Source: an uncultured virus (IMG/VR IMGVR_UViG_3300028372_000001)
Lineage: Duplodnaviria > Heunggongvirae > Uroviricota > Caudoviricetes
Direction: 5' to 3' (one strand)
Virus record (IMG/VR): IMGVR_UViG_3300028372_000001
DNA length: 64,000 nucleotides
In this document: positions 11,033 through 56,879 of the stretch, piece by piece
Position numbering within the stretch: position 1 is the stretch's first letter
Layout: each line of letters starts with the position of its first letter
The notes under the pieces: generated by a model
Databases searched by the model: none
Seen by the model: the letters and a program-made list of their open reading frames with translations, nothing else
What the model was told of the DNA's origin: nothing
Program-made: the position numbers and the translations under genes

Positions 11033-11608
11033 ATGATTGAGTATACAGTGCGAGTTGAGGATGATGGTGACCGGTTTTGGTATTTGAATGGGCAGCTTCA
11101 TAGGGAAGATGGTCCGGCTATTGAGTGGGGTGATGGTAGTCGTTCGTGGTATTTGAATGGAAAGCTTCATAGGGAAGATGGTCCTGCTATTGAGCAGGCT
11201 AATGGTTTTCGTTCGTGGTATGTGAATGGAAAACGCCATAGGGAAGATGGTCCTGCTGCTGAATATGCTGATGGTGGTCGTTTTTGGTATTTGAATGGAA
11301 AATACCATAGGGAAGATGGTCCGGCTATTGAGTGGGCTGATGGTGATCGTTCGTGGTATTTGAATGGAAAGCTTCACAGGGAAGATGGTCCTGCTCTTGA
11401 GATGGCTGATGGTGTCCGTTCGTGGTGGATTAATGAAGAGCGTCATAGGTTGGATGGTCCTGCTGTTGAGTGGGATGATGGTAGTCGTGAGTGGTATTTG
11501 AATGGGAAGCAACTTACGGAAGCTGAGTTCAATGCTAGACAACACCCTACCTGTGATGGTAAGGTTGTAGAAATTGATGGCAAGAAATATAAGTTGATGG
11601 AGGTTTGA
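11033..11608 (+). CDS. HREDGPA-repeat protein 3 (6 modules)
   Basis: Same architecture as protein 1. Confidence 0.9.
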   Translation: MIEYTVRVEDDGDRFWYLNGQLHREDGPAIEWGDGSRSWYLNGKLHREDGPAIEQANGFRSWYVNGKRHREDGPAAEYADGGRFWYLNGKYHREDGPAIEWADGDRSWYLNGKLHREDGPALEMADGVRSWWINEERHRLDGPAVEWDDGSREWYLNGKQLTEAEFNARQHPTCDGKVVEIDGKKYKLMEV

Positions 11609-13648: not shown

Positions 13649-14033
13649 TACGCCATATCTCTACATGGGAAATTATTTGTATTTCTACCCACATGGAACC
13701 GGTTTTAATAGCCCGCGATTCAGTCTAAGATATATTGTATATGATACGGAGCTTGAAGAGTTCGAGTACCGAGGGGAGGCACCAAACAATCCAGCTCATG
13801 TAGATACTATCAGGAGTCGCGCTGAACATGGCCAATGCGTTGTCTATAATGCAATTATCTCACACGCACCTGTAATTGAATTTAACAACGATGGTCCCGC
13901 TATCGTCGCATATGATATAGCCCGTCCCGTATGGAGGCATGGATTGAGTATTACGGAATGTATTCGTGTTCTCGAAGAAGATGAAATAATCGATATCTAC
14001 GCAAGGCTGGAAAATGATCAGGTTCGAATTTGA
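13638..14033 (+). CDS. hypothetical protein (YIVYDTELEEF motif family)
   Basis: ORF; shared motif. Confidence 0.6.
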   Translation: MKTNTPYLYMGNYLYFYPHGTGFNSPRFSLRYIVYDTELEEFEYRGEAPNNPAHVDTIRSRAEHGQCVVYNAIISHAPVIEFNNDGPAIVAYDIARPVWRHGLSITECIRVLEEDEIIDIYARLENDQVRI

Positions 14034-14544
14034 CAAAAAAGCTGCCATTACATTGTTTATATGCTTCGATTACACTGGATTTGTGGTATACCATGTCGAT
14101 CATGATATGTACTATGGTTACAACAATGCACAGTATACATATGTTTGGTACAATCCAATGGAAAATGATTTTCGGGTAGTAACTATGTTTCCGCGTAGGA
14201 ACGGGGGAGAGATTCAAGAAACTACTGGGATAGACTACGAAGTTTTTTACATATTCAAGTTAAAGACACTAGATGTAAGACACATTAGCATGCGCTTGGG
14301 TGGTTTACGTGATCCTTATCATGATCAGGATGCTGTGATAGTATGGCAATTTGGTAACCGCTCTCCGTTGAATATATATTTTCCCGCCATTATGGGTAGT
14401 AACTTTTCCATGGTCCCAGTAAATTTACATATGCGGGCTTTTGGAACTTATGAAATGTTAGATGCTAATGCGCCTTCTAGTAAGGGCCATGCAACGTGTC
14501 ATGATTACAACGTAGAATGGATCAATGCAGAGCGAATAACATAA
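14014..14544 (+). CDS. hypothetical protein (FVVYHVDHDMY motif family)
   Basis: ORF; shared motif. Confidence 0.6.
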   Translation: MIRFEFDKKAAITLFICFDYTGFVVYHVDHDMYYGYNNAQYTYVWYNPMENDFRVVTMFPRRNGGEIQETTGIDYEVFYIFKLKTLDVRHISMRLGGLRDPYHDQDAVIVWQFGNRSPLNIYFPAIMGSNFSMVPVNLHMRAFGTYEMLDANAPSSKGHATCHDYNVEWINAERIT

Positions 14545-17337: not shown

Positions 17338-18843
17338 ATGAGCCAAATTACTGAAAACCTTGAAAATCTTCGACAAGAATGGATCGATGGTGGGGACGCA
17401 TATCCCAATGATATCGACTGCTCGCATCGCCGGTCGGCAGAGAGCCTGCATTTGAACGACTATCTTTCGGTCAACGATCCCGATTCAATGGCTGAATGGA
17501 ACAGTATTTGTGGTCATACAACGGTCATTGGGCGAGTTATTCTGCGTCGTGTTATGGGTAAGATGAGCTTCATTACGCTCCGGGACGAGACTGGTGATAT
17601 CCAGTGTGCAATCCAGCGTGATCAAGTTGGTGAAGAAGCCTATGCAGCATTCAAGCGGCTCTGGCACATTGGTGACATTGTTTCTGTCACTGGTGAAGTG
17701 TTCTACACTCGGACGGAAGAATTGACTGTTCGCGCAAGTGAAATTCGCCTGATCAGCAAGACTATTCTTCCTATGCCCGAGAAGCATGAAGGTCTCAAGG
17801 ACACCGAGACGCGGTATCGTCAACGCTATCTGGACATGATCAGCAACAACAAGTTTGCTGTGACACTCAAGACTCGTTCAGAAATGCTGCGACGTATCCG
17901 TCGTGGTCTTGAAGAAAACTTCGTGGAAGTTGATACTCCCGTGCTTCAGGCTGTCGCCAGTGGTGCTAATGCTTTGCCGTTTGTGACGCATCACAATGAA
18001 CTGGACGCTGATATGTTCCTTCGTGTGGCTCCCGAGCTTGCGCTCAAGATGCTTATCGTCGGCGGCATGGAAGGTGTGTATGAGATTGGACGATGCTATC
18101 GTAACGAAGGTGTGTCATCCAAGCATAACCCTGAGTTCACGTCTCTGGAAATGTATATGGCGTACATGGATTATAAGGCCATGATGTTTTGGTGTGAGCA
18201 GATCATCAATGATGCGATGTGCTGCGTTAGCAGTTATCACTTCGAAGGTGTTCAGTATCAGGGTCAGAACCTCAACATTGACACTACGACCCGTTTCCGT
18301 CGAATGACTGTTCGAGAAGCTGTTCTTGAGTACACTAATGTGACGGAAGAGCAGATTGATGATCGCGATGCTCTCATTCATGAATTCTTCACTGGAGAAG
18401 ACCATGGTGATACGCTTGCTATGCTCCACTACCGCATCTTCGAAAAGCTGGATGTTGAGTCAAAGCTGATTGAAGCAACCTTCATCACGCACCTTCCGAT
18501 TGAAGTTTCTCCGCTTGCACGGCGCAACGATGATAACCCGGAAGTGGCGGATCGATTCGAGCTTTATATCGCTGGCATGGAAATCGCCAATGGGTTCTCG
18601 GAACTCAATGATTCTGTGGAACAGCGTGAACGGTTCATGGAACCGGCTCGTAAGCACGCTGATGAGCTTCTAGGTGAAGAGCCGATGCAGTTCGATGAGG
18701 ACTATATCACCGCTCTGTCTTATGCCATGCCGCCTGCTGGAGGTCTTGGAATCGGCATTGATCGTCTCATAATGCTGGCAACTGATTCCCCATCCATCCG
18801 TGATGTGATTGCGTTTCCAACGATGAGGCCCCAAAGTAGCTGA
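17338..18843 (+). CDS. lysS: class II lysyl-tRNA synthetase
   Basis: OB anticodon domain (RRVMGKMSF, GDIVSVTG), ETRYRQRYLD, motif 2 YRNEG..KHNPEFT, EIANGFSELND, motif 3 PPAGGLGIGIDRL. Confidence 0.95.
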   Translation: MSQITENLENLRQEWIDGGDAYPNDIDCSHRRSAESLHLNDYLSVNDPDSMAEWNSICGHTTVIGRVILRRVMGKMSFITLRDETGDIQCAIQRDQVGEEAYAAFKRLWHIGDIVSVTGEVFYTRTEELTVRASEIRLISKTILPMPEKHEGLKDTETRYRQRYLDMISNNKFAVTLKTRSEMLRRIRRGLEENFVEVDTPVLQAVASGANALPFVTHHNELDADMFLRVAPELALKMLIVGGMEGVYEIGRCYRNEGVSSKHNPEFTSLEMYMAYMDYKAMMFWCEQIINDAMCCVSSYHFEGVQYQGQNLNIDTTTRFRRMTVREAVLEYTNVTEEQIDDRDALIHEFFTGEDHGDTLAMLHYRIFEKLDVESKLIEATFITHLPIEVSPLARRNDDNPEVADRFELYIAGMEIANGFSELNDSVEQRERFMEPARKHADELLGEEPMQFDEDYITALSYAMPPAGGLGIGIDRLIMLATDSPSIRDVIAFPTMRPQSS

Positions 18844-43797: not shown

Positions 43798-43875
43798 TAA
43801 GCTACTCCTATTTTGTATTCTTTCGGGTGTAATACTATTTAGCCAATTATAAATTGTAGCTTTAAACCTACAAAT

Positions 43876-43903
43876 AAAAACGGCACCCGAAGGTGCCATT
43901 TTT
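43876..43903 (-). terminator. terminator after tmRNA
   Basis: ggcacc-ttcg-ggtgcc followed by gtttttattt. Confidence 0.8.
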
Positions 43904-44071
43904 AGGTTGACTTTGATAACAAGGCGTTTCCTGCCTCGTGAGGTTCACGCCGCTAGACGGAAGTCCTCATCAAATGTATTATCATTTGCATTTACTTTAA
44001 TGATTTTTACGATTTTTCTTATCGGGTTGTCACTATTCCTTCACTATCCACGTCGAATCCAGAACGCCCTC
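43900..44071 (-). ncRNA. ssrA: permuted tmRNA, coding piece; tag (A)ANDNTFDEDFRLAA* at 43989-43945
   Basis: 5' GAGGGCGTTCTGGATTCGAC; resume codon GCA; tag ends in LAA. Confidence 0.9.
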
Positions 44072-44263
44072 AAAGCTGGCCACGCCACCCGGAGGTGACG
44101 GGACCGTATCCTTTTGTACACATGGCACATAGGAAATGTAGGTCCATAACTACTAAGTTGTCGTATAAAAGGAAGACCTACGGCAGCCCCTTATCTCTCT
44201 GGCAACTTAATAACCCTCTCGCTAAAGAGGTAAACATTCAATTTAACCCGATTGAATGCTTAG
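44072..44263 (-). other. 192-nt structured intervening segment of the permuted tmRNA
   Basis: Lies between the acceptor 3' end and the coding-piece 5' end; several helices. Confidence 0.75.
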
Positions 44264-44325
44264 TGAAGGCGGCGGGAGTCGAACCCGCGTCCGCGAATGA
44301 TCCTCAACAGATCATACAACCATAC
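44264..44325 (-). ncRNA. ssrA: permuted tmRNA, acceptor piece
   Basis: GGACGCGGGTTCGACTCCCGCCGCCTTCA; pairs with GAGGGCG to give G3.U70 and discriminator A; CCA not encoded; TAAATA just upstream. Confidence 0.9.
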
Positions 44326-44627
44326 TTACTACTTCTATTTAGTCTTTCTAAAAAATTCACTTGATAAGGCTTAAGTACTTCGTCTTCTAAATTTAAGGTT
44401 TAGATGCTGACTGTCAATAGTGTCTTAAGCTTCCCAGCCCCAAGATTGTACATTCTTTAATCCCAGAATTCTTATGCGGCATTTTATTTATAATAACTAT
44501 ATTATTATATTAGGATACGCCTGTGTAACTTAGAACTCAATAAAATGAGTATAGTTACAGTAGTCATTGTGAGACGCAGCAAAAGCTAACTGAATGCAGA
44601 ACCTCTTATCAAGTTGTGGTAATGATA

Positions 44628-45058: not shown

Positions 45059-45847
45059 TTATACATGATTTAGTATTTCACCATCCCTGTATTCTTTAAG
45101 TAATATTGGAGTGCCGTTATTCCACTCCCAGACTTGTAGAATGCCGTCTTCGGTTTCACCTATCCATGAACAGGTCTCTACCCAATCTCCACTATTTAAG
45201 TACAGTGTATTATCATACCCAATCATTTTTATTTCGGGATGATGTATGTGCCCACAAATGACGCCATCGTACTTACCATGCACCATAGTGGCCGCTGTTT
45301 CTTCAAATTTGAACATGAAATTTGCAGCTTCTTTGACTCTATGTTTCAAGTACTTAGATATTGACCAATACTCGTATCCGAGTGCTCCGCGAATTTTGTT
45401 ATAAAATAAATTAAACGACAGCATAAGATTATACCCAACATCACCGATGTATGCAACCCATTTATGATAGTGCATAATATTGTCAAACCCATCACCATGG
45501 ACAACCAAGAAAGATTTACCATTGCTTTTGTAAACCATCTTGTTTACAATCTCGATGTTACCAAGTTTCATATCAAAGTCGTGATAGCCTCGAAGGAACT
45601 CATCATGATTTCCAGTAACGTAGTATATTTTACGTCCCTTCTTGGCCATAGATAGCACCTTGCGGATTGCGTTGACGTGTTCTTGTGGAAAGAACCATTT
45701 AGATTTCAGTCTCCAACCGTCAATTATATCACCATTCATAATTAGAGTATCAAACTTTGTCTCATCCAAAAACTTTGTGAAAGCTTCTGCTTGACACCCT
45801 CTACTTCCAAGATGAATATCGGATACCCAGACGGTTTTAAACTTCAT
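45059..45847 (-). CDS. LpxH-like metallophosphoesterase (UDP-2,3-diacylglucosamine hydrolase family)
   Basis: SDIHLG, GDIIDGW, GNHD, HGD.FD, CGHIH, NSGDWVE. Confidence 0.85.
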   Translation of the reverse strand: MKFKTVWVSDIHLGSRGCQAEAFTKFLDETKFDTLIMNGDIIDGWRLKSKWFFPQEHVNAIRKVLSMAKKGRKIYYVTGNHDEFLRGYHDFDMKLGNIEIVNKMVYKSNGKSFLVVHGDGFDNIMHYHKWVAYIGDVGYNLMLSFNLFYNKIRGALGYEYWSISKYLKHRVKEAANFMFKFEETAATMVHGKYDGVICGHIHHPEIKMIGYDNTLYLNSGDWVETCSWIGETEDGILQVWEWNNGTPILLKEYRDGEILNHV

Positions 45848-46326
45848 CGCCACCCACCATCCAAGTCTTCATGATACTCTTCGATTAGTTCTAGTGGACC
45901 GATGTCTTCCAGATTCAATTTAGATATGTCCAAACCAACACACTCGTATGATAACGTGATGTGGGGTTGGTATTCATCAAAATCGAAAGTTGCCCCATGA
46001 TCATCCATTATTTGATTATGGCGCTCCACAAGGTCAGGGGATTTCAGTTTGATAACCAGTGCGTTTTCCTCTTCACCGAATAGTCCAAATTTATCAGGTT
46101 CTGCAAGCATTGGAGTTTCAAGCTTACCACGTGATTTAAACTTTGGCAGATATTTACGTGAGTAAATTAAAGTTGTGTGGAGTTCCTTTTTGCCGAGAGC
46201 GTCAGGGAAATTATTCGCATTGATAAATTCCATGATCTTCTCCGCAGATTCATCAGATAAGCGGGCTCCGACATATGTCCCTGCGGGGGTACTTTCGAGT
46301 AATTGTTTAAGCAGTTTCAATTTCAT
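45844..46326 (-). CDS. acb1: Acb1-like (T4 57B-type) 2H cyclic-nucleotide phosphodiesterase
   Basis: GTYVGA, LHTTLIYSRK, GATFDFDEYQPHITLSY. Confidence 0.78.
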   Translation of the reverse strand: MKLKLLKQLLESTPAGTYVGARLSDESAEKIMEFINANNFPDALGKKELHTTLIYSRKYLPKFKSRGKLETPMLAEPDKFGLFGEEENALVIKLKSPDLVERHNQIMDDHGATFDFDEYQPHITLSYECVGLDISKLNLEDIGPLELIEEYHEDLDGGWR

Positions 46327-46582
46327 AATTGCGTTCTGTAAGCTCATTTCTATATAATTCAACGACAGCATGAACCAATACATCTAAATCTTTCTCCATA
46401 TCCTTTTCCGTCAAAACACATGACTGAATATTGCGGCCATGGTGGAATTTCCATTGCTTAGACTTATGAACGCTGATGGCTAAGAAATAATCACCATCGT
46501 CATATGCCAGTGATACGACTAGATCATCACCAAGTTCAGCCGCGATTTTCTCATGGAAGATAACTACATCTGAAAACTTCAT
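46307..46582 (-). CDS. hypothetical protein
   Basis: ATGA coupling. Confidence 0.6.
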   Translation of the reverse strand: MKFSDVVIFHEKIAAELGDDLVVSLAYDDGDYFLAISVHKSKQWKFHHGRNIQSCVLTEKDMEKDLDVLVHAVVELYRNELTERNYEIETA

Positions 46583-52077: not shown

Positions 52078-52560
52078 CTATTCGGTAATGTCAACTACTG
52101 TAACTACCTTAATTTCGGCCTCGTCTAGCATGATATGGTTTACGCCACATGCATCATAATGTGTGCCCTTCCCCTTACCGGGAAATTTGATATTGGGACC
52201 TATGACTTCAACGATACCAGCTTGAATGATAGCACGAGTACAATCGGAACAACACTCTACCTGATAATTCATGTACATTTTACAACCCCGCGTCGAAACC
52301 CCAACGCGGGCTGCGTTAAAAATTGCGTTCCGCTCACCGTGTTCAGTCCATTCATACTTCTGTGGGCGCTCCCATCTATCTTCGATATCTTCGTTGACGT
52401 TTCGTGGAAATCCATTAAAGCCTGTACTGACTACTTCATTATCTGGCCCTACGATTATTGCACCACATTTGGTACTCTGATCCTTGGACTTGCTCGCAGC
52501 TAATTGAGCCATTTTCACAAAATATTCATCCCAACTGCTTGCTCTTCGTTCACTTCTCAT
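52078..52560 (-). CDS. dCMP deaminase
   Basis: SKD.STK.GA, GFNGFP, HGERNAI, CSDC. Confidence 0.9.
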   Translation of the reverse strand: MRSERRASSWDEYFVKMAQLAASKSKDQSTKCGAIIVGPDNEVVSTGFNGFPRNVNEDIEDRWERPQKYEWTEHGERNAIFNAARVGVSTRGCKMYMNYQVECCSDCTRAIIQAGIVEVIGPNIKFPGKGKGTHYDACGVNHIMLDEAEIKVVTVVDITE

Positions 52561-52832
52561 TTATTATCCTTTAAAATTTTTTCAATTTGATTTGTTCTCT
52601 GTTTGCCGTAGCAAGACTCACAGGGTACATTGCCTCGACGTACCGCATTTTCTACTACTGGATCAAAGTCCATCATTTCGGCATGAAGGAGATTCATTGT
52701 CATATGAGTTGTAAGCCAAATTGGCAAGCGATCAATGATTCGGCCTTGAGTTGCAATAGGATAACGCTGGGCATCCCAGTACATCTTATGCATAAGCTCG
52801 GGCATCCACTCTATATCTTCTTGATGTACCAT
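52557..52832 (-). CDS. hypothetical protein
   Basis: GGAG SD. Confidence 0.6.
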   Translation of the reverse strand: MVHQEDIEWMPELMHKMYWDAQRYPIATQGRIIDRLPIWLTTHMTMNLLHAEMMDFDPVVENAVRRGNVPCESCYGKQRTNQIEKILKDNK

Positions 52833-52844
52833 ATATTCTCCAAT

Positions 52845-52870
52845 AAAAAAGGGGGCCGAAGCCCCCCCCC
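52845..52870 (-). terminator. terminator after NAMPT
   Basis: gggggc-ttcg-gccccc-tttttt on the minus strand. Confidence 0.8.
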
Positions 52871-52927
52871 CATCGAATCCCCATCAGTGTATAGTGCTCA
52901 CTTTTGGGGTAACTTAAACTGCTTCGC

Positions 52928-54364
52928 TTACTTGCCGGGAAAATCCCGTAGGGCTGCGAGTTCGCGAACTTCATCAAACGTTTGCTTCCTAAGAATCTTA
53001 CCATTCTGGAAAACCGTGTCCATTGCAACTACTTCGGTGTTCTTCATAGTGTCGTGCTGGTTAATCGTCCTGTACTCTTTCGTCTCAGTATCTTGAACGA
53101 GAGTCAAAATTCCAGCCTTCGACGCCTTGGTAGGATCAGTGATCGGAACCTTCTGAATATCACGAGCATCACCATCAACAACGATGTGAGAGCCCTTGAT
53201 TGCAAACCGCAGTGTATCACGATCCAGCTTCCGAAGCAAGCCTCCACCACTACCAAAGTTGATGTTATCTGCCGAGTAGCCCAGAGATTCAAAGTTGCCA
53301 AGGATATCTTTGACCGCTTGCAAATCAACACCATCACCTTGAATGATTCGAACGCAATCGTTCAATACCTTGAAGCCCTTGTCGTTGACATAGGAGCCAA
53401 ACAACTCGTCCAACTTCGTGACAACAAGCTCGGTCATTTCAACAGGCACGCCACTATCGGGGCGAATAACGATCACACCGTTGCTTTCGATTTCTTCTCG
53501 AAGCTCACCAAACATTTCGATGGCTGCAACAAGATCGTAGGTGTCACATACTACAGAGCAGATGCCGGTCTTAGGCAGCACGGTACGGACGATGTTGGCG
53601 AAGAAATCAAACTCACGAAGTTTACCCCATCCAATAGTAACAGTGTGTTCCGTAGCAGGAATTGAGAATCCGGCCATGCCACTGGCTGTACCGTAGTAGT
53701 CTTCTGCCATGCAAATGCCAATCATGTTATCAGTGGAAGTACCCGAGGTCAGGTGAGCAGCGCCACCAACCATGGCTTCTTCCTTGGTGCTAACACCACG
53801 ACTACCAAAGTCCACAAGCTTCGTGTTTGCAAGTTCCGGCGAACCCGTGCGTTCAAGAGAATTCTTAAACACTTTGAGGAACTCACGAGAGTGGGTTGCA
53901 ACCGTAATGGGGTACCAAGAGCGCATGTAAATGTTTTCGAAGTACGAAGCACACCAAGACACATTAAATCGAGGATCAGTCGTCTCGATAGTCATTAGTG
54001 CATTGTTTACCGGAACAACAGCACCTTCCTTAACAGCCCTGACCTTAATGGGAATAAATCCATTGTGATCATTAACAACAGCTTCCCAACCTTTACGGTT
54101 GAATGCGGCTGTAGTACCTATGTGCTTTTCAATGAACTCTTCGGCCTGATCAACCATTTCCATGGTTACAGGTTCCATCATTTCATGCTCAAGAATGTAC
54201 TGAAGGCCGAAGAAAACGGTCTCATCGTACAACGCACCCGCTCGCGCCTCAAGATATACTTGAGAGAAGCTAGTGCCATTCTCCATGAACATCCAGTGCC
54301 CAACTTTATAAGTGTCGGTGTTCAAGATAACATTATCAGTAAGTTTAAGTTCTTGGTTTTTCAT
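52928..54364 (-). CDS. nadV: nicotinamide phosphoribosyltransferase (NAMPT)
   Basis: TDTYK..H, FFGLQY, DFGSRG, SIPATEH, IRPDSG, IIQGDG, FGSGGGLL. Confidence 0.9.
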   Translation of the reverse strand: MKNQELKLTDNVILNTDTYKVGHWMFMENGTSFSQVYLEARAGALYDETVFFGLQYILEHEMMEPVTMEMVDQAEEFIEKHIGTTAAFNRKGWEAVVNDHNGFIPIKVRAVKEGAVVPVNNALMTIETTDPRFNVSWCASYFENIYMRSWYPITVATHSREFLKVFKNSLERTGSPELANTKLVDFGSRGVSTKEEAMVGGAAHLTSGTSTDNMIGICMAEDYYGTASGMAGFSIPATEHTVTIGWGKLREFDFFANIVRTVLPKTGICSVVCDTYDLVAAIEMFGELREEIESNGVIVIRPDSGVPVEMTELVVTKLDELFGSYVNDKGFKVLNDCVRIIQGDGVDLQAVKDILGNFESLGYSADNINFGSGGGLLRKLDRDTLRFAIKGSHIVVDGDARDIQKVPITDPTKASKAGILTLVQDTETKEYRTINQHDTMKNTEVVAMDTVFQNGKILRKQTFDEVRELAALRDFPGK

Positions 54365-54366
54365 TT

Positions 54367-54384
54367 GCCATATCTCCTATGTGC
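54367..54384 (-). promoter_or_regulatory. 18-nt leader GCACATAGGAGATATGGC (copy 1, includes SD)
   Basis: Identical to 55517-55534. Confidence 0.8.
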
Positions 54385-54429
54385 AAGTTTAGTTTTACGA
54401 GATTACGCTCAATGCTGTTTACTATAACA

Positions 54430-55515
54430 TCACCCGATGAAATAGTCAAGTATATCAGCATGGTCTTCGAAAAGTTGATCCCGCATTCTATGGACTTCAG
54501 CGAATGGGAACCACCATGCTTTCAAGATTCCGGGACCTGCCCGTAAGCCCTTCACAGGGAGTGGACGAGAAGAATCAAGTTCGTAGTAGAAGGCCGTTGT
54601 AAGCGTTCTATTTCGGTCTGTCGTAAGCCTAGCACGCAATGAGCGATTAGGATTGTCAAATTCGTGTTTATCAGTCAATGAACCTTTGAATGCTTTTACT
54701 GGCACATCAAGATTAGTCTCACTTAGCACCGCACGAATAGAAGCGTCTTCAAGCGTTTCATTCGGTCCAAGGTGAACCCCCGGCAATGCCCATTGTCCAT
54801 AGCCCATGGGGTTTCCACGCTGCACCAATAGCACGTGTCCAGACTGTGCCACAACCGAATCAACCGTCTGGAATGTAATGCCGTATGGTAGAGCCTCATA
54901 TAACTTTTCTTCACTCCTAATATATTCATATTCTTCACGAAGAATCTTGAATTCATCACTTAGAATGAAGTCTTGCATCCAGTTGTAAACATAGGGAGTA
55001 ACATTACTTTCAATGTAACCGAGGTGCCCCTCAAATATAAGTTCACGGATTTTGGTAGAGGACACAACCTTACCAGCGTTTCCTTTGACGTATGGCCCAG
55101 TTTCAACAAACGACCAGTTAGGGAAGTTCTCACGAAGGTAATAACTACTTGAATCCTTTTCGTGTCCAATAATTCCGATACGCGGATTGGTCTTGCCAGT
55201 CGTATAACGAGCAATATCAGCTACAGAACCTTGAATAAAAGTAATCCATTTAGATTCTTTGTAGCGATGATCTTCCGCATGTATGAATGTAAGTTTAGAA
55301 AAATCAATACCATCTGCAAGGGCAGAGTTGCTAAGCATATCTTGCCGCTCTGCGGCGGTCCATGGATTTTTTGGTGTGCGGGCGGCGTTGGATGAACCAA
55401 TTATGATAATAACTTGATCTGCCGCGTTGGCTGCCTGTCGCAGCGTAGACATATGTCCATCATCGGAAGGTTCGAACCTTCCGATGTAAACAATTGCATC
55501 GTATTCTTTACTCAT
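54430..55515 (-). CDS. bifunctional NMN adenylyltransferase/Nudix (NadM-Nudix, NatV-like), with degenerate motifs
   Basis: YIGRFEP...GH, GSSN, KNPWT, GHEKD.SSYYL, SSTKIR; TVDSVV..SGHVLL, WALPG, FEDH. Confidence 0.88.
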   Translation of the reverse strand: MSKEYDAIVYIGRFEPSDDGHMSTLRQAANAADQVIIIIGSSNAARTPKNPWTAAERQDMLSNSALADGIDFSKLTFIHAEDHRYKESKWITFIQGSVADIARYTTGKTNPRIGIIGHEKDSSSYYLRENFPNWSFVETGPYVKGNAGKVVSSTKIRELIFEGHLGYIESNVTPYVYNWMQDFILSDEFKILREEYEYIRSEEKLYEALPYGITFQTVDSVVAQSGHVLLVQRGNPMGYGQWALPGVHLGPNETLEDASIRAVLSETNLDVPVKAFKGSLTDKHEFDNPNRSLRARLTTDRNRTLTTAFYYELDSSRPLPVKGLRAGPGILKAWWFPFAEVHRMRDQLFEDHADILDYFIG

Positions 55516-55516
55516 A

Positions 55517-55534
55517 GCCATATCTCCTATGTGC
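55517..55534 (-). promoter_or_regulatory. 18-nt leader GCACATAGGAGATATGGC (copy 2)
   Basis: Identical to 54367-54384. Confidence 0.8.
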
Positions 55535-55590
55535 TGAGTGATATACTGTGTATTATATAACTATTTATCTAACTTGTCAAGTGGTATAAT

Positions 55591-55618
55591 AAGAAAGGGG
55601 CCAGATGGCCCCCTTCTT
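55591..55618 (-). terminator. intrinsic terminator
   Basis: ggggcc-atct-ggcccc-tttctt. Confidence 0.65.
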
Positions 55619-55634
55619 AAGCATTATATAGGGA

Positions 55635-56879
55635 TTAAATCTCTACGTCAATGCGTGTTGCGTTTACAGTTGTGGTATCCGTAGATGTAATCTGCAGACC
55701 CATCGTCTGAGCAGCGCCTGTACCCGATAGTACCACATCGAACTTTAGACCTAAAATAGCGCCATTCAAGCGAAGCTTGGAACTGACGCTCCAATCAACC
55801 TCGGTAGCATCGGCCCCGGCTGTCCCATCATGCGTTGCATAAACTTCAACAGATTCTTTCTGCGTCGGATCACCTTCATCAAACACAGTGACAAACCATT
55901 TTGAGGTCTGAATATCATCAATTAACACAGTATCCACTGTCGTTGCTGTCGTAACGCCCGTAGAAACAGACGTGTTTGGCGCAACATCAGCGATAGCAAT
56001 GTCAAGAGCGTCAATAGATGCTGTAATGGTCTGACCATCTGTTACGAAATTATCTTCAGTGTAAGTTCGGTTACCAATAGCGATATCAAGAGCATCCAAA
56101 GATGCGGTTACAGTCTCGGCATCCGTTACAATGTTTTGTTCAGTGTATGTGCGATCACCAATTGCGGTATCAAGTTCACCAATTGCAGCCTCAAGTGTAC
56201 CACCTTGAGTAACAACTACTGCGGAGGAATAAGTTGGCGTTTCGGAGCCAGCAGCCGTCTTACCAATGAAGGCACGAATAAATGCTAGTTCCGCGTTATT
56301 TGTAGTAGAAGCGATTTGCTGCCATACTGTACTGTCATACACCCATTGTGACTCAGCATACGTACCATCTTGAACAAGTAATGCGTCGCCGTCGGTTGCT
56401 GTGTTTACGTCTTCCGTGAATGTCCAGTTCCCTGTTGAACCAGAAACAATATAAACGTTCTCGTTACCAGTTGTCAAATCCGTAAAGAGAACGCGATCAT
56501 CTGCGGCAATTGTAACACCATCAACCGTATCACCTACGTTTGCCGCTGTTTCTGCTGCGGTAATATCAGCGTATGTGGTATCATCAAGTACGAGGATGGG
56601 CTCTCTCCATGAGAGACCGTTGATTAGGTTATCAACGTAAGACTTGGACGCAGACTGTACCCAGTCTGCAGCTGCATTTGTGTCAGTAATTTTCTGATAA
56701 ACTACAGAAATTGATGCCGATGCGTCCGTTCGCAAATAAATGGAACCAACGGGGGCATCATCTTGGTAACTGGTATCGCCACCGGGTACGCCAGAACCAG
56801 ATAGGACGCTACCCGCACGGGTACCGTCTTCTTCATCAATTGAAAGTCCAAGTGCAACTCTGAATAGATCTAATGCCAT
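55635..56879 (-). CDS. putative virion structural/tail fibre protein
   Basis: SKSYVDN...GL.W, VDGVT....DRVL....T...EN.VY; internal repeat AIGxRTYTExN; TAAATA upstream. Confidence 0.65.
   Translation of the reverse strand: MALDLFRVALGLSIDEEDGTRAGSVLSGSGVPGGDTSYQDDAPVGSIYLRTDASASISVVYQKITDTNAAADWVQSASKSYVDNLINGLSWREPILVLDDTTYADITAAETAANVGDTVDGVTIAADDRVLFTDLTTGNENVYIVSGSTGNWTFTEDVNTATDGDALLVQDGTYAESQWVYDSTVWQQIASTTNNAELAFIRAFIGKTAAGSETPTYSSAVVVTQGGTLEAAIGELDTAIGDRTYTEQNIVTDAETVTASLDALDIAIGNRTYTEDNFVTDGQTITASIDALDIAIADVAPNTSVSTGVTTATTVDTVLIDDIQTSKWFVTVFDEGDPTQKESVEVYATHDGTAGADATEVDWSVSSKLRLNGAILGLKFDVVLSGTGAAQTMGLQITSTDTTTVNATRIDVEI

Follow-up and report, generated by a model that had tools for sequence, protein, structure and literature searches.

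In phage T4, the repressor RegA and the GGAG-cutting nuclease RegB are proteins which shut off early mRNAs at their SD regions, and the coat-protein operators of RNA phages such as MS2 are short hairpins with a bulged A which hold the ribosome-binding region. Among base-pairing RNAs, C4 antisense RNA pairs with the ribosome-binding region of its target, and RNAs of the 3'ETS-leuZ type act as sRNA sponges with Hfq. The available text of PMC11143913 describes C4 of phages P1 and P7 as cut from a longer precursor by RNase P, and that of 10.1101/2021.04.25.441314 presents 3'ETS-leuZ and similar tRNA-spacer regulatory RNAs as base-pairing by-products of tRNA-type processing. Two-piece tmRNAs of phages, encoded by permuted genes with a spacer (IVS), numbered 53 among 18,146 phage genomes and were mostly aquatic according to the accessible part of PMC9004378; the accessible part of PMC11915505 reports a tRNA-Ala inside an IVS of a permuted tmRNA. 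In literature on permuted tmRNA in phages, including these parts of the two papers, we found no regulatory IVS. NadV and NatV form the route from nicotinamide to NAD+ (NARP2), which the available portions of 10.1101/2024.02.11.579819 and PMC13464706 treat as a phage counter-measure to NAD-depleting defence; those portions do not address phage control of the route, and a literature search on natV/nadV leaders found nothing on the leader described below.

Here we analyse a stretch of 64,000 nt (IMGVR_UViG_3300028372_000001; hereafter the window), part of a large uncultured phage from a lake, in which the IVS of a permuted tmRNA gene carries a tract complementary to a hairpin leader shared by natV and nadV. 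The tmRNA belongs to Rfam RF04321 like the known phage two-piece tmRNAs, some of which have cargo near or in the IVS. If the window IVS acts, it would resemble C4 as a phage antisense RNA excised from a longer precursor; C4, however, is a dedicated gene product in immunity control, whereas the present candidate is the spacer of a tmRNA gene with putative NAD-salvage targets. RNAs of the 3'ETS-leuZ type are sponges for sRNAs, whereas the target here would be an mRNA translation-initiation region and the source a permuted tmRNA. The logic would be like that of RegA and RegB in that translation of an early-gene set is stopped via the SD region, but those are proteins, while the effector here would be an RNA with its site on two genes only. 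The NAD leader hairpin itself resembles the MS2 operator (short hairpin, bulged A, ribosome-binding region), although loop and stem sequences differ.

Genomic setting and relatives

The region from 39 to 58 kb of the window encodes Acb1, DHFR, PhoH, dCMP deaminase, a ClpP-like protease, NadV and NatV, that is, genes of nucleotide metabolism and counter-defence. A distance of 6-9 kb separates the NAD genes from the Acb1 anti-CBASS homologue (45844-46383, minus strand; Pfam 3.7e-35), an arrangement which points to a counter-defence cluster in an early-looking region. A class II aminoacyl-tRNA synthetase of the D/K/N type is found at 17338-18843. Table 1 lists the features on which the analysis turns.

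Table 1. Positions of the tmRNA and NAD-gene features in the window, and of two endonuclease genes in related phages.
Feature	Position	Strand	Basis or context
Permuted (two-piece) tmRNA gene, precursor span	43854..44353	-	ARAGORN tmRNA*, tag ANDNTFDEDFRLAA; Rfam RF04321 110.1 bits at 43945-44321
Terminator hairpin GGCACCUUCGGGUGCC then U-run, after tmRNA	43882..43897	-	Sequence
Coding piece: 5' acceptor strand GAGGGCG (G3.U pair), pseudoknot region, tag ORF 43945-43989	43945..44071	-	ARAGORN, Rfam
IVS, 191 nt, strongly structured	44072..44262	-	Boundaries by acceptor-stem pairing; MFE -64.6 kcal/mol, z -3.18
Anti-leader CUACAUUUCCUAUGUGC, 13-bp core 44125-44137	44125..44141	-	Sequence, inside IVS
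Acceptor piece: P2 strand, T-arm, 3' acceptor strand CGCCUUC + discriminator A	44263..44321	-	cmscan alignment, sequence
CTAAATAG, T4-late-promoter-like, 13 nt upstream of GGUUGUAUG	44335..44342	-	Sequence
Sigma70-like promoter TTGACA-16-TAAATT (10/12), upstream of tmRNA	44390..44417	-	Sequence
Terminator after nadV	52848..52871	-	
nadV (nicotinamide phosphoribosyltransferase), ATG 54364	52928..54364	-	Pfam NAMPT_N, NAPRTase
nadV leader hairpin, same 18 nt as natV	54367..54384	-	Sequence, folding, alignment
nadV promoter, sigma70-like, TTGACT-17-TATAGT (10/12, TG)	54421..54449	-	Sequence
natV (NMN adenylyltransferase + Nudix), ATG 55515	54430..55515	-	Pfam CTP_transf_like, NUDIX
natV leader hairpin GC-A-CAUA[GGAGA]UAUG-GC, SD in loop	55517..55534	-	Sequence, folding, alignment
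natV promoter, sigma70-like, TTGACA-17-TATAAT (12/12), ATAAATAG in spacer	55552..55580	-	Sequence
G001 endonuclease gene, 245 aa, HNH + NUMOD3 + I-TevI-type DNA-binding	L016 5003-5740		Between natV and nadV, just upstream of nadV leader
G002 endonuclease ORF	L017 14094-14654		Between acceptor piece ~13990-14049 and coding piece 14632; stop codon overlaps coding-piece 5' end

Searches by overall similarity returned nothing close. The tmRNA and NAD regions had no blastn match among 50,697 phage records, no known phage protein exceeds 44% identity to the window NadV (tblastn), and a single-protein scan of IMG/VR with this NadV yielded no relative. Pattern scans of IMG/VR led to two related IVS-bearing lineages: G001 (84.5 kb; ~71.5% DNA identity to the window, with 71% and 75% amino acid identity in NadV and NatV) and G002 (18.9 kb; 48% and 54%, respectively). 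A scan of IMG/VR with the leader core gave 73 loci, the NAD-related ones being only G001, G002 and G021, a distant phage fragment of 11.7 kb without tmRNA, in which the core stands before nadV only; the closest NadV relatives of G021 (47-58% amino acid identity) are without the leader. The tmRNA pattern found 11 loci in a metagenome scan, namely a strain near-identical to the window (L026), a duplicate of G002 (L031) and nine unrelated loci. A scan of genome contigs gave five loci, none of them related. Contigs from four DNA runs represent further strains near-identical to the window, with a single low-depth variant within the anti-leader.

The permuted tmRNA gene and its spacer

The window gene belongs among the permuted tmRNAs of RF04321. 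Its acceptor stem GAGGGCG/CGCCUUC, built from the two pieces, has a G.U third pair, and it has a T-arm (CGCGGGUUCGACUCCCGCC) and a tag ORF with AA before the stop (ANDNTFDEDFRLAA*). It scores 110.1 bits and G001 98.5 bits, while G002, at 44.3-44.5 bits, falls slightly under the cut-off of 47 bits. Since the IVS lies between the acceptor and coding pieces, it must be removed for a two-piece RNA to arise. In the window (44245-44262, minus strand) and G001 the acceptor piece is followed by ACUAAGCA and CCA is not encoded, so that CCA must be added after trimming; the G002 tmRNA encodes ACCA. Permuted tmRNAs above the Rfam cut-off were also observed in 8 of 18 natV-bearing jumbo-phage contigs (IMG/VR G003-G020), in one of which (G003) the gene, at 11219-11483, lies ~1.1 kb upstream of natV.

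The spacers of this clade are long, at 135-582 nt. Those of the window (191 nt) and G001 (135 nt) compare with 25-99 nt in seven other phage permuted tmRNAs, and both are more stable than their shuffles (z -3.2 and z -3.0, respectively). The 582-nt IVS of G002 contains an ORF for a 186-aa endonuclease (PHROG endonuclease, 9.9e-19; HNH endonuclease, 9.5e-14; also endonuclease VII), and the gap in the tmRNA is thus a landing site for a homing-type endonuclease gene.

A conserved hairpin leader on both NAD genes

An 18-nt leader, GCACAUAGGAGAUAUGGC (that is, GCACAUAGGAGAUAUGG(C)), occurs in exactly two copies in the window, before natV and nadV, and GCACATAGGAGATATGG is matched exactly at 54384-54368 and 55534-55518 of the minus strand. 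The preliminary description had proposed a ribosome-binding leader common to two NAD-salvage genes; the exact copies bear this out, and Pfam confirms the products as NadV and NatV. The leader folds into a hairpin in which the pentaloop holds the SD and the stem has a bulged A, with a local MFE of -6.4 kcal/mol (z -3.26) for the nadV copy. Seven aligned instances give eight pairs with 92.9% of cells paired, and four of the eight pairs are changed on both sides. Covariation scores 0.345, where shuffles give 0.109 and 0 of 500 reach the observed value. Variation on both sides is found in the four pairs of the outer stem (GC/GC becoming AU/AU before nadV of G002, and UC/GA in G021), and the inner 14 nt are invariant in 7/7 instances from four phage lineages. 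The leader is a conserved RNA hairpin which overlaps the SD and has the features of a cis-regulatory leader hairpin.

All three tmRNA-bearing lineages (window, G001, G002) keep this leader. It is identical at 18/18 positions before both genes of G001 and at 17/17 before natV of G002, where the nadV copy, ATACATAGGAGATATGAT, retains 14/17 with compensatory changes. For 17 pairs of ordinary orthologous leaders in the window and G001, the longest run of identical bases has a median of 3 nt. Rfam holds no relevant family for the window leaders (52500-56000, E<=5) and gave no match at five nadV loci of other phages (E<=1). Unrelated phages commonly use the 14-nt core, ACATAGGAGATATG, with ATG after it as a strong RBS (73 IMG/VR loci). 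A near-identical leader, ...ataaaaaatataaagACATAGGAGATATGgatgATG, was seen in an unrelated phage group (L077-L144, about 25 IMG/VR loci), so that this core serves as an RBS in other settings too.

Other hairpins were observed before NAD genes in further jumbo-phage contigs (L037-L055, L066-L072, L157-L163), in which natV/nadV is preceded by structures whose stems are variable and covary. Their loops read AUAGA, ACAGA, AAAGA or AGAGA, frequent flanks are AAGUCC...GGCAU, and a frequent form is AAGUCC-stem-AUAGAC-stem-GGCAU. Hairpins with an A(U/C/A/G)AGA loop stand before 15 of 33 NAD genes, as against 8 of 128 other genes at the same loci, and those before NAD genes match nothing in Rfam; a search with a loose AAGYC...RGCAT hairpin pattern gave counts equal to its control. 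We regard the A(U/C/A/G)AGA-loop hairpins as candidates for a new cis-regulatory RNA motif of NAD-reconstitution genes in phages. The GGAGA-loop leader of the window appears to be a variant form of this family, one whose loop has turned into the SD.

Complementarity within the window

The plus strand at 44125-44141 reads GCACATAGGAAATGTAG, and the RNA of the minus strand is therefore CUACAUUUCCUAUGUGC. Of its 17 bases, 16 pair with the leader (two G.U); 13 of these pairs are contiguous (one G.U), and the hybrid energy is -18.4 kcal/mol. The preliminary description had reported this stretch of the insert as complementary to the SD leader, and its sequence, coordinates and pair counts are confirmed. 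Allowing up to three mismatches to GCACATAGGAGATATGG, both strands of the window contain three sites, the two leaders and the tmRNA site, against 0.17 expected, and 0 of 100 shuffles gave three. As orientation is irrelevant on double-stranded DNA, three copies of a motif might also be expected if one DNA-binding protein recognised a 14-17-bp operator at both NAD genes and, inverted, in the tmRNA gene. We consider this very improbable: the spacing of the leader is fixed with respect to the start codon and variable with respect to promoter elements, its outer stem shows covariation at the RNA level, most differences between the IVS copies and the leader are G.U-compatible transitions, and no candidate regulator gene was identified.

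A more serious rival, and in our assessment the main one, is coincidence over an autonomous leader. Here the SD-in-pentaloop hairpin would be a self-contained translational operator, read by the ribosome or by a sequence-specific protein, and the IVS matches would be chance pairings of pyrimidine-rich tracts with a purine-rich SD. That the inner stem of the leader is invariant rather than covarying agrees with this account, pointing as it does to a sequence-reading partner common to all lineages. So does the presence in both the window and G001 IVSs of several anti-SD-like tracts (UCUUCCU, UUUCCU, UCUCCU, UCUCUAU). The preliminary description had itself allowed that a match of this length could be chance, and the answer depends on the comparison made. 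When the window IVS is shuffled 150 times, 29% of the shuffles score as high on one or more of 108 gene starts (17% for G001), so that the window match alone is post hoc and not significant, again as coincidence would have it. Against the specific 18-nt leader, however, the match is rare, being equalled by 0/1000 dinucleotide, 109/200,000 mononucleotide and 34-65/100,000 block shuffles, the last of which preserve local composition. The IVS site is also the best complement of the leader on the transcribed strand, ranking first of 63,983 window positions, with the next best at 12.0.

Among possible targets, contiguous pairing places the two NAD leaders as the top two of the true gene starts, both in the window (110) and in G001 (120); in the window list, one antisense ORF overlapping the tmRNA gene outscores them. 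The expectation that the NAD genes should rank top is thus upheld by contiguous pairing, but it is not upheld once IVS structure is taken into account. RNAduplex without accessibility returned inflated energies with long loops and was excluded from the ranking. By the RNAcofold partition function, the NAD leaders of the window reach -10.5 and -10.3 kcal/mol (mean -5.25, sd 2.64), which puts them fourth and fifth among 108; those of G001 come eighth and 41st among 118. The seed is mostly paired inside the IVS, including in the MFE structures of the window and G001; the opening cost is 6-10 kcal/mol and leaves a net pairing energy of only -4 to -6 kcal/mol. It had further been proposed that UUCCU sits in the loop of a UACAU/AUGUG hairpin. 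This hairpin is the MFE structure of a 25-nt piece, where it is weak (-2.9 kcal/mol, z -0.97), but it does not form in the MFE structure of the whole window IVS, in which the tract takes part in other helices. Such poor accessibility is a further point for coincidence. An accessible seed combined with top rank in structure-aware prediction was found in neither the window nor G001, and we have for this reason not filed the window IVS among trans-acting regulators.

The low-depth variant noted above, 44133 G>T (depth 2.8 in one contig, lake run X8), would cost the core one of its G-C pairs and turn the anti-SD UUCCU into UUACU; an error of sequencing or assembly may account for it.

Recurrence in related phages

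Conservation in relatives had been set as a test beforehand, and the lineages informative for IVS-leader complementarity are only two. G001 has a complement of different sequence. Its IVS tract CGUGUCUCCUGUGU forms 14 contiguous pairs with ACAUAGGAGAUAUG, three of them G.U, at -19.6 kcal/mol; the score against the leader is equalled by 0/1000 dinucleotide, 35/200,000 mononucleotide and 6-20/100,000 block shuffles, and the site ranks first of 84,481 positions on the transcribed strand (12.5, next best 10.5). G002 has no leader complement in its IVS (989/1000 and 195,805/200,000 shuffles do as well), and its leader is intact; conservation of the leader is thus independent of the IVS. The complement is accordingly present in two of the three lineages with both leader and tmRNA. 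Of the eight natV-bearing contigs with a permuted tmRNA mentioned above, the seven distinct ones, all from phages further removed, have an IVS which pairs with the phage's own NAD leaders at background level (p 0.13-0.98), and a general rule across phages was dropped on this result.

The anti-leaders of the window and G001 have only 8 of 17 bases in common. MAFFT puts one on each side of an IVS hairpin that is homologous between the two phages (window, GUAGGUC/GACCUAC; G001, ACGUGUC/GACACGU), in which four of seven pairs are doubly changed with pairing kept. The window anti-leader extends from the 3' strand of this hairpin into a piece of ~60 nt which is absent from G001, and the two IVSs are otherwise beyond BLAST alignment. 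With so few shared bases, opposite hairpin sides and a hairpin that is itself kept, simple inheritance of one chance match is unlikely. Judging by the sequences, the complement would either have been preserved under heavy divergence or have arisen separately in the two phages. At leader positions 3-16, which are those paired in G001, five of six deviations from a perfect complement are G.U-compatible when both phages are pooled and read by hand; as the leader is invariant in the paired core, true two-sided compensation cannot be seen.

For coincidence over an autonomous leader, these comparisons cut both ways. The leader is conserved without an IVS complement in G002 and before nadV of G021, and NNAGA-loop hairpins stand before NAD genes in phages without IVS complementarity, as would be expected of a hairpin which acts by itself. 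Coincidence, however, requires two events which are rare against the specific leader (about 5e-4 in the window and about 1e-4 in G001, even with shuffles that preserve local composition), together with genome-wide rank 1 in both genomes. We regard it as unlikely, while keeping it as the foremost competitor.

The complementarity could also be non-random and yet involve no regulator in trans, as a relic or by-product, for example of an ancient inverted leader copy, of homing-endonuclease traffic or of selection on helices internal to the IVS whose purine strand resembles the leader by chance. In the G001 MFE structure, the anti-leader pairs internally with a leader-like strand, UUACAUGGG, and both loci are endonuclease landing sites, G001 having the HNH/NUMOD3/I-TevI-type gene between natV and nadV (absent from the window and G002) and G002 the gene in its IVS. 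The two endonucleases, however, show no homology (BLASTP E 0.56); the IVS and leader regions show no DNA similarity beyond a 10-mer; and a neutral relic should not persist as 13-14 contiguous pairs in two IVSs that BLAST cannot align. We therefore think an origin of this kind rather improbable. A shared homing-endonuclease target, a separate candidate, was dropped because the G001 and G002 endonucleases are unrelated.

On balance, we favour the view that the complementarity is non-random, with considerable room for doubt. What raises it above chance is the conserved SD-in-loop hairpin leader together with the 14-bp complement of different sequence in G001.

Promoters and timing

The preliminary description supposed a late-expressed tmRNA. 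In agreement with this, (A/C)TAAATAG, which is T4-late-promoter-like, stands before the tmRNA in all three lineages (CTAAATAG in the window, ATAAATAG in G001, ATAAATAG/TATAAATAG in G002). The T4 late promoter is TATAAATA, which ATAAATA(N) resembles, and ATAAATA(N) occurs mostly 24-37 nt upstream of many start codons, at 14 sites in the window, 27 in G001 and 8 in G002. The natV gene shares the motif, however, having TTGACA-N6-ATAAATA in all three lineages, an arrangement which suggests overlapping early and late promoters, and the tmRNA of the window has a sigma70-like promoter in addition. Late tmRNA with early NAD genes is a plausible reading of these motifs; the ATAAATA at natV and the sigma70-like site at the tmRNA keep it from being established.

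A possible antisense mechanism

If the complementarity serves regulation, the following scheme may be envisaged. The permuted gene would give rise to a two-piece tmRNA, whose maturation, by analogy with known tmRNA biology, would involve RNase P cutting the 5' end of the coding piece and, on the acceptor piece, 3' trimming followed by addition of CCA, and would free the long, structured IVS. The IVS, or the unprocessed precursor, would then present its pyrimidine tract to the SD-in-loop hairpin of natV and nadV. A duplex of 13-14 bp there would mask the SD and keep the 30S subunit from binding, and might also leave the mRNA open to decay; synthesis of the NAD-salvage enzymes would then drop as tmRNA transcription rises. 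Accumulation of the IVS, pairing in vivo, a repressive direction and the timing are all parts which we infer. Antisense occlusion of the two SD hairpins, whether by the IVS or by its precursor, is in our estimation plausible and the likeliest single reading, though tentative and somewhat short of an even chance. The fuller proposal, in which the excised IVS would be a trans-acting antisense RNA which invades the SD hairpin of the NAD genes and switches off counter-defence as late tmRNA transcription rises, asks for more and is held more tentatively again.

Implications

The findings suggest two layers of control over the NAD route: an invariant SD-in-loop hairpin on both genes and, in one clade, maybe an antisense partner in the tmRNA spacer. 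Should the antisense reading prove false, the leader hairpin family remains as a testable new cis-element. Should it prove true, permuted-tmRNA spacers would have a function, the first regulatory one for a tmRNA IVS, and would constitute a source of regulatory RNA which gene finders ignore, and these phages would possess an RNA counterpart of protein-based early-mRNA shut-off.
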